In this document: in pieces, positions 12,001 through 15,000 of the stretch
Layout of the letters: every line of letters starts with the position of its first letter
Numbering within the stretch: the stretch's first letter is position 1
NCBI RefSeq assembly: GCF_041248615.1
Contig: NZ_CP158426.1
DNA from: Escherichia coli
GTDB taxonomy: Bacteria > Pseudomonadota > Gammaproteobacteria > Enterobacterales > Enterobacteriaceae
Reading direction: 5' to 3' (one strand)
DNA: 64,000 bases
Made by a program: the position numbers

Positions 12001-15000
12001 GATATTCCCGTTAATGCAGCAAAGCCGGGGCGTCGGCGTTATCTGACACTGGTGATGATCTTTATTACGGTGGTCATTTGTTATGTTGACCGCGCTAACC
12101 TGGCCGTGGCTTCCGCCCATATTCAGGAAGAGTTCGGCATTACCAAAGCGCAAATGGGCTATGTATTTTCGGCCTTCGCCTGGCTTTATACGCTATGTCA
12201 GATCCCCGGCGGTTGGTTTTTAGATCGCGTAGGTTCACGCGTGACTTATTTTATTGCGATATTTGGCTGGTCAGTGGCGACTTTATTCCAGGGCTTTGCC
12301 ACGGGATTAATGTCATTAATTGGTCTGCGCGCGATAACCGGTATTTTCGAAGCGCCCGCTTTCCCGACCAATAACCGGATGGTGACCAGCTGGTTCCCGG
12401 AACATGAACGCGCTTCTGCCGTTGGTTTTTATACGTCTGGTCAGTTTGTCGGTCTGGCGTTTCTGACTCCGCTGCTGATCTGGATTCAGGAGATGTTGAG
12501 CTGGCACTAGGTGTTCATTGTCACTGGTGGTATCGGCATTATCTGGTCGCTGATTTGGTTTAAGGTTTATCAGCCGCCGCGCCTGACCAAAGGTATCAGC
12601 AAAGCTGAACTGGATTACATTCGTGATGGCGGCGGTCTGGTGGATGGTGATGCGCCGGTGAAAAAAGAGGCACGTCAGCCGTTAACAGCCAAAGACTGGA
12701 AACTGGTGTTCCATCGTAAACTGATCGGTGTCTATCTTGGGCAATTTGCGGTGGCTTCTACATTGTGGTTTTTCTTAACCTGGTTCCCGAACTATTTAAC
12801 CCAGGAAAAAGGAATCACGGCGCTGAAAGCAGGCTTTATGACCACGGTGCCATTCCTCGCGGCGTTTGTCGGCGTCCTGCTCTCTGGCTGGGTCGCGGAT
12901 CTGCTGGTACGTAAGGGCTTTTCACTGGGCTTTGCGCGTAAAACGCCGATTATCTGCGGCTTGCTGATCTCCACCTGCATTATGGGCGCTAACTACACCA
13001 ACGATCCGATGATGATTATGTGCCTGATGGCGCTGGCATTCTTCGGCAACGGTTTTGCTTCGATTACCTGGTCGCTGGTCTCTTCTCTGGCACCGATGCG
13101 CCTGATTGGTTTAACCGGCGGCGTGTTTAACTTTGCCGGTGGTCTGGGCGGCATCACCGTTCCGCTGGTGGTGGGGTACCTGGCGCAGGGTTACGGTTTC
13201 GCCCCGGCACTGGTTTATATCTCCGCCGTCGCGTTGATTGGCGCGCTCTCTTACATCCTGCTGGTGGGCGATGTGAAACGCGTTGGATAATCTTTCAACT
13301 GTGGAATATGCGCCACACCACTGCGCATAATCCACTTTCTTAAAGCCGGTGCGGTCAGGCATCGGCTTTTTACTATCTTACCGAAGAGTTTTAAACGCAG
13401 TTTGCGGGTGGCGCGCCAGTAGGCGGCGTTACTCTTCTCCGGCTGCTTCAGTAACACCGAACGCAGAATCTCTGCGCTATCCAGCGCATAGCTAATCCCC
13501 TCCAGCGAGCTGGCGCTGATAAATCCCGCCGCTTCACCAATCAGAAAGGCATTGTCCTTACCGCAGACAAAATCCTGCCAGCGTGAGGGAAACAACACGG
13601 TACATTTCTCACTTTTCACCGCTTCGCCAAACTGGAACTGAAAGGCGCTCATTTTCTCTTTCAGTGCTGTGAAACGCGTCTGACCGTCTTTCATGGGATA
13701 GGCACCGCCAAAGATAAAATAACCGTCTTTGCTGATACTCCATGAGTAACAGTCAGTTATCGCATTATCAAAGATGCAGGAGTAGAACGGCACCGGATGC
13801 TTCTCTGCGAACCACTGCTGGATAGCGACATATTTACGAATTTGATGGTTCGGGTAGAGATGTCGCCGCACCATCGAGTTGGCACCATCGGCACCGACCA
13901 GATAGCGGGCAGAAATATGCTGCTCCCAACCGTCTGCACGAAAAATGACATGCCATTTATCATCCTCACGCCAGATTTTTCGACACAGGCTGTCGTGATA
14001 AACCTCAACGCTGGCGGGGATCAGAGATTTCATCCACAAGTCGAAAGCATGGCGATTAATATTGATATAGCTTCGCTGGTAGTTACGCGTGAGCAATGCG
14101 GCGACGTCGACGGTTTTGACGCTGAAAATCTGCGGGTTGGCGATCACATCGACAGGAAGCGTCAGTCCATCGCGAATAAAAGATCGCTGCGCGTCCGGTG
14201 CCAGCAGACCGCCACAAGGTTTGCTGAAACCTTCAGTACCACACTGGTGCTTTTTATCCAGCGCGATCACCTGCATTTTGCCTGCTAACTTTCGTGCCAA
14301 CGCCGACCCTGCCGGGCCGAGGCCAATAATCGCCACGTCGAAATGTTCCATCTTTTCACTCACATTCATCACGATGGCGAAAGACTATTGTCTGAAAGTG
14401 AAGTCCTTGTGAAGTATGATGGCGGGACCCGTTTTGTATCAGGACCGCGCCATGAAACAGATAACCTTTGCTCCCCGTAATCACCTGCTCACCAATACCA
14501 ATACCTGGACGCCCGACAGCCAGTGGCTGGTATTTGACGTGCGTCCTTCTGGCGCGTCGTTTACCGGCGAGACCATTGAGCGTGTGAATATCCATACTGG
14601 AGAGGTCGAGGTTATCTATCGCGCGTCACAGGGCGCGTACGTCGGCGTGGTGACCGTTCATCCGAAGTCAGAGAAATATGTTTTCATCCACGGCCCGGAA
14701 AATCCTGATGAAACATGGTATTACGATTTCCATCATCGACGCGGAGTGATTGCTGAAGGCGGCAAGGTGAGCAATCTCGATGCAATGGATATTACCGCGC
14801 TGTATACGCCAGGAGCGCTGCGTGGCGGCAGTCATGTACATGTCTTTAGCCCAAACGGTGAAAGGGTGAGCTTTACCTATAATGACCATGTAATGCATGA
14901 ACTCTGCCCGACGCTGGATTTGCGAAACGTCGGTGTTGCCGTACCTTTTGGCCCGGTCAACGTACAAAAGCAGCATCCGCGTGAATACAGCGGTAGCCAC

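Follow-up and report, generated by a model that had tools for sequence, protein, structure and literature searches.

The convergent dgoT-cbrA junction

We analysed a stretch of 64,000 nucleotides from the Escherichia coli contig NZ_CP158426.1 (assembly GCF_041248615.1), referred to below as the window. It matches E. coli isolate NRZ14408 (NZ_LT599825.1) with 100% identity at the same coordinates and corresponds to the first 64 kb of that chromosome, with dnaA at the start. NZ_LT599825.1 is an older assembly that was deposited as linear. NRZ14408 is reported to be a clinical isolate, resistant to multiple drugs and to carbapenems (PMC8694152). The locus of interest is the meeting point of dgoT, on the plus strand, and cbrA, on the minus strand, whose coding sequences overlap at their 3' ends. 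The relevant features are as follows.

11953-13290, plus strand: dgoT, gene for a D-galactonate MFS transporter, a pseudogene here (RefSeq/PGAP)
12508-12510, plus strand: internal amber codon in dgoT, TGG to TAG, by a G>A change at 12509
13251-14351, minus strand: cbrA coding sequence, 366 aa, WP_001590917.1, colicin M resistance lipid reductase (RefSeq; NF008519 equivalog)
13251-13290: convergent dgoT/cbrA coding overlap, 40 bp (ORF listing, sequence reading, RefSeq)
13251-13253, minus strand: TAA stop of the 366-aa cbrA allele (ORF listing, RefSeq)
13254-13289, minus strand: 12 extra codons at the CbrA C-terminus, read antisense to the end of dgoT (outside NF008519; pLDDT below 50)
13287: toggle base, A here and C in K-12, third position both of the last dgoT codon and of a cbrA codon
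13288-13290, plus strand: dgoT stop TAA; with the preceding base, its reverse complement is the cbrA stop in K-12-type strains

A preliminary description of the window had named both genes and placed their 40-bp overlap at 13251-13290, and RefSeq and our own reading of the ORFs agree on each point. It had also put the CbrA product at about 12 residues longer than that of K-12. This is borne out, as translation from the ATG at 14351 (MEHFDV...) gives 366 aa here and 354 aa in a K-12-type genome. The mechanical ORF list gives cbrA 373 aa by counting from a GTG further upstream, a figure that was set aside; the alignment to the family model begins with the ATG at 14351. A different start was likewise rejected as the source of the extra length, the start being that of K-12 and the excess over K-12 being entirely C-terminal.

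The protein falls in the CbrA family of geranylgeranyl-reductase-like flavoproteins. It scores 684 bits against a cut-off of 303 for NF008519, the CbrA equivalog model (NCBIfam/PRK11445), and it also matches TIGR02032, a subfamily of GG-reductases. Residues 1-354 align to positions 1-354 of the 355 in NF008519, leaving residues 355-366 unaligned. In an alignment of 60 sequences, the three glycines of the N-terminal FAD-binding Rossmann motif GxGxxG (G10, G12 and G15) are invariant. The review PMC8469651 describes K-12 CbrA as an FAD-dependent enzyme that saturates the alpha-isoprene unit of C55-P-linked lipids and so prevents colicin M from cleaving them. The same review, citing Helbig 2012 and Barreteau 2020, gives the substrates as undecaprenyl phosphate and its lipid I and lipid II derivatives.

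The partner gene is interrupted. The dgoT amber codon replaces Trp186 of the 445-codon ORF, equivalent to Trp171 of the 430-aa K-12 protein. PGAP flags the gene as a pseudogene with an 'internal stop', and the ORF does not provide an intact full-length DgoT frame. A near-identical Spanish isolate, 362, shares the haplotype of NRZ14408 but has an intact dgoT. Of 5426 complete E. coli genomes, only two carry the 30-mer with the amber codon. The second carrier, the goat isolate SMBL, has a different haplotype, with 21 differences in dgoT and the short cbrA allele. The occurrence of the amber mutation on two different haplotypes suggests that it probably arose twice. NRZ14408 is predicted to be unable to import D-galactonate via DgoT.

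More extensive loss of the region is seen elsewhere. The whole dgoRKADT operon is absent from O157:H7/O55:H7-type E. coli, from the E. albertii type strain and from Escherichia sp. E1V33. These operon-less strains keep a 105-114-bp remnant of the dgoT 3' end between yidX and cbrA (corresponding to window positions ~13185-13290 and to 4989-5102 of locus L020). The breakpoint of the remnant is similar in all three, and the remnant includes the cbrA stop region.

The window also has a mosaic appearance around cbrA. Positions 13006-14241, covering most of the gene, are base-for-base identical to strain 118UI and to 'capsule spontaneous mutant 21a'. The flanks differ from these two strains at 37 sites in 10831-13005 and at about 50 sites in 14242-15743, or ~1.5-2% on either side. 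This pattern suggests recombination, with putative breakpoints near 13005 and 14242.

Three further features of the window lie away from the junction. A segment of ~3.5 kb at 33435-36898, between ilvN and uhpA, holds two genes annotated 'hypothetical protein' (34510-34992 and 35268-36737); ilvN and uhpA are near neighbours in K-12, which suggests that the segment is an insertion that varies between strains. At 45910-46570, between yicN and nepI, lies what looks like an accessory toxin-antitoxin insertion, with genes for a RelE/ParE-family toxin and an HTH antitoxin. A very long gene (~11.1 kb) at 48188-59317 is annotated as the inverse autotransporter adhesin IatC.

A single base sets the end of cbrA

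We compared the window with a K-12-type genome in an ungapped alignment of 5440 bp, which contains no indel. Position 13287 is A in the window and C in the K-12-type genome. The last codon of dgoT is GGA in the one and GGC in the other, both encoding glycine, so the difference is silent in dgoT. On the cbrA strand, 13287-13289 reads TAT (Tyr) in the window, as against the TAG stop of K-12, and the A at 13287 leaves the cbrA frame open as far as 13251-13253. In the K-12-type genome, cbrA therefore ends after 354 aa, and its overlap with dgoT is 4 bp. Enumeration of all four bases at 13287 gives tyrosine in cbrA for A or G and a stop for C or T, with the dgoT glycine kept in every case. The preliminary description had proposed a different stop codon in this strain, which this one base accounts for, or else a start/stop annotation issue, which finds no footing: the start is as in K-12, the NF008519 alignment begins at residue 1, and the PGAP product likewise has 366 aa. 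The reference comparison that it had suggested, in search of an identical C-terminus, instead shows that the C-termini of K-12 and the window differ. The change is a substitution inside the stop codon, with the same start and without a frameshift, as in a stop-codon polymorphism.

These observations fit a simple mechanism. In most E. coli, the dgoT and cbrA stops interlock on 4 bp, read as C-TAA on the plus strand and as T-TAG on the minus strand. The base before the dgoT stop serves as the fourfold-degenerate third position of the last glycine codon and, at the same time, as the third position of the cbrA stop. A pyrimidine (C or T) at this site gives cbrA a TAG or TAA stop and a 354-aa product, and a purine (A or G) gives a tyrosine codon. 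With A at 13287, ribosomes on the cbrA mRNA would read 12 further codons to the TAA at 13251-13253, making a protein of 366 aa. We consider it very probable that the longer CbrA is a natural cbrA stop-codon polymorphism, made possible by the tail-to-tail contact of cbrA and dgoT. Within the 40-bp overlap, dgoT and the cbrA tail have their third codon positions in common, so a synonymous change in dgoT will tend to leave the residues of the cbrA tail unaltered as well.

Both alleles are common. Exact junction 30-mers, distinguishing haplotypes over 13287-13293, were counted in 5426 complete E. coli genomes, of which 5261 were typed by three 30-mers and ~160 were not. The counts are as follows.

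Haplotype A-T (window): cbrA TAT, read-through; 1376 of 5426 genomes
Haplotype C-C (K-12): cbrA TAG, stop; 1268 of 5426 genomes
Haplotype C-T: cbrA TAG, stop; 2617 of 5426 genomes

The TAG-stop haplotypes thus occur in at least 3885 genomes, and both cbrA alleles segregate in E. coli. The long allele is not peculiar to this strain, since ~25% of E. coli genomes carry it. Sizes of protein clusters were rejected as a measure of allele frequency and exact DNA 30-mers used instead, because clusters at 90% mix both lengths. A separate sample was taken by BLAST end-trimming, with 100-base queries ending at the toggle base and 60 evenly spaced records. The window-type query indicated A in 16 of the 60 records and a base other than A in 43, and the K-12-type query indicated C in 43 and a base other than C in 16. 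All 16 of the non-C records have cbrA annotated in its long form, extending below the toggle base.

The long allele is a frequent, lineage-linked variant. Its carriers include 536, Nissle 1917 and ATCC 25922 (Seattle 1946), and short-allele carriers include O157:H7, ETEC H10407, 55989 and K-12. RefSeq/PGAP annotates 366 aa and a 40-bp overlap in NRZ14408, isolate 362, Z1323HEC0462, 118UI, capsule mutant 21a and 536; RefSeq annotates 354 aa and a 4-bp overlap in the K-12-type genome, O157:H7 and SMBL. The 366-aa CbrA with its 40-bp overlap is therefore already known, being annotated by RefSeq in every carrier record examined, and is an ordinary feature. By chance alone, a run of 12 more codons up to the following antisense stop would be nothing unusual, and its length is not what makes the feature real. 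We take the overlap as real because 1376 independent genomes share exactly this junction sequence.

Both states also occur in other Escherichia species. A pattern scan with one genome per species returned cbrA in two Escherichia species besides E. coli and in several Citrobacter; it did not return E. coli itself, E. fergusonii or E. marmotae, and its outgroup sampling is thin. The E. albertii type strain has the A-T haplotype and a 12-residue CbrA tail identical to that of the window. In Escherichia sp. E1V33, both the haplotype (C-C) and the cbrA stop are those of K-12. In Citrobacter youngae and C. amalonaticus, cbrA faces dgoT and the sequence GGT-TAA gives cbrA a TAA stop and a 4-bp overlap. 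A more distant case was found in a Logan contig (SRR10097273) from an enterobacterial relative with ~78% nucleotide identity to the window, in which cbrA and dgoT overlap by 40 bp at 2826-2865. Here the dgoT stop is TGA, which is read as histidine in the frame of cbrA, and the reading frame again continues for 12 codons to the same TAA. By parsimony from Citrobacter, we infer that the interlocked-stop state is probably the older and read-through the derived one. Both states occur in Escherichia other than E. coli, however, and the cbrA stop alleles may possibly be an old or a recombining polymorphism.

The CbrA tail and alternative explanations

We examined the 12-residue tail for signs of function. 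The AlphaFold2 model of CbrA, built from the 60-sequence alignment, has a mean pLDDT of 86.9 and a pTM of 0.86, which supports a confident flavoprotein-type fold, and residues 354-366 fall below a pLDDT of 50 and lack secondary structure. A search for a solved structure on which to place the tail found no close PDB relative and one weak match (E = 5.7e-05). CbrA orthologues are conserved up to an 'AHIP' motif, after which their tails differ in length and sequence. Overall lengths range from 351 to 386 aa, with tails from none to ~30 residues. We infer that the 12-residue tail is probably a disordered, functionally tolerated appendage. The extension is most likely a tolerated, near-neutral variant, a reading favoured because the tail lies outside the family model, is predicted to be disordered and varies in length among orthologues. 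Conservation of the tail says nothing either way, because constraint on dgoT on the opposite strand could explain it. The extension would appear to matter little, and there is no sign that the tail changes CbrA function.

An alternative is that the tail is functional and selected, for CbrA stability, membrane association or activity, and that the wobble base acts as a switch between two isoforms. The persistence of both cbrA states at appreciable frequency would suit this idea, as would their presence in other Escherichia species, the intact tail of E. albertii despite the reduction of dgoT there to a ~105-bp remnant, and the arrival of an unrelated lineage at the same read-through by another mutation. 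However, the tail is predicted to be disordered and falls outside the family model, its sequence is the antisense of the conserved DgoT C-terminus, and CbrA orthologues end in many different tails, from none to ~30 residues. The distribution of the long allele also looks lineage-linked (B2-type strains 536, Nissle 1917 and ATCC 25922), as neutral descent would give. We regard a functional tail as unlikely.

Two joint readings extend this idea. In the first, the dgoT wobble base would be a selected two-state switch, maintained as an old polymorphism across Escherichia. It would yield two CbrA isoforms with C-termini unlike in stability or in their behaviour at the membrane, and the isoforms would therefore protect to different degrees against bacteriocins of the colicin M type. 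In the second, which concerns this strain alone, the nonsense mutation in dgoT would bring about premature Rho-dependent termination of dgo transcription and thereby free cbrA from antisense interference. We give the pair, taken together, a distinctly low probability.

A regulatory effect was considered as well, in which 36 nt of additional cbrA translation into dgoT would alter antisense or transcriptional interference, as in excludon-type control. The pair cbrA-dgoT is among 165 convergent pairs with overlapping transcripts in the 'excludome' compiled with ExcludonFinder from 58 MG1655 RNA-seq data sets (PMC12288877). We searched the junction for intrinsic terminators and found none that was convincing; the one terminator-like match on the plus strand is no more than chance expectation. 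Both the transcript overlap and the lack of a convincing terminator would be compatible with interference. The transcripts overlap with the 4-bp allele too, however, so the long allele is unnecessary; overlapping transcripts are a known feature of this locus whichever cbrA allele it carries. There is no intergenic space between dgoT and cbrA with either allele, and the choice of cbrA allele affects where the protein ends but leaves the convergent layout as it is. We see no indication that translating a further 36 nt alters the fate of the RNA. The cbrA-strand RNA of the overlap folds no better than shuffled sequence (z = -0.36), giving no structured element, and an Rfam search of 11500-15000 returned no match at E <= 1. 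In this strain, moreover, dgoT is a pseudogene anyway. A regulatory role for the extension is very unlikely.

Finally, an artefact, with the true cbrA stop that of K-12 and the extension produced by a wrong base call or a misplaced gene boundary, could be suspected from the older, linear assembly record and from the internal stop in nearby dgoT, but its probability is negligible given that the junction 30-mer occurs in 1376 independent complete genomes and the E. albertii type strain, that A at 13287 leaves no in-frame stop before 13251-13253, and that PGAP calls the 366-aa CbrA in six records.

Comparison with known systems

Under the preferred reading, a natural stop-codon polymorphism, the locus would be a clean example of interlocked convergent stops, in which a base that is silent in one gene sets the end of the other. 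Two lengths should be expected wherever CbrA is compared between K-12 and ExPEC, Nissle or E. albertii.

The reference protein is K-12 CbrA (YidS, b3690), a 354-aa FAD-dependent reductase whose gene, position and start are the same as here. Over residues 1-354, the window protein is 96% identical to P0003, the representative of a cluster of E. coli CbrA proteins and itself 354 aa long. The window protein differs from that of K-12 by its 12 extra C-terminal residues, and the overlap with dgoT is 40 bp instead of 4 bp. The MG1655 excludon pairs (PMC12288877) concern overlap between transcripts in K-12, and not overlap between coding sequences or a stop-codon allele. The closest counterparts of the window allele are the 366-aa CbrA proteins of B2-type strains (536, Nissle 1917 and ATCC 25922) and of E. 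albertii, which share its read-through base, tail and TAA stop. These 366-aa CbrA proteins, WP_001297960.1 and WP_001377132.1 among them, differ elsewhere in the sequence from that of the window by scattered substitutions only. E. albertii departs from the window in the partner gene, since its dgoT is cut down to a 3' remnant.
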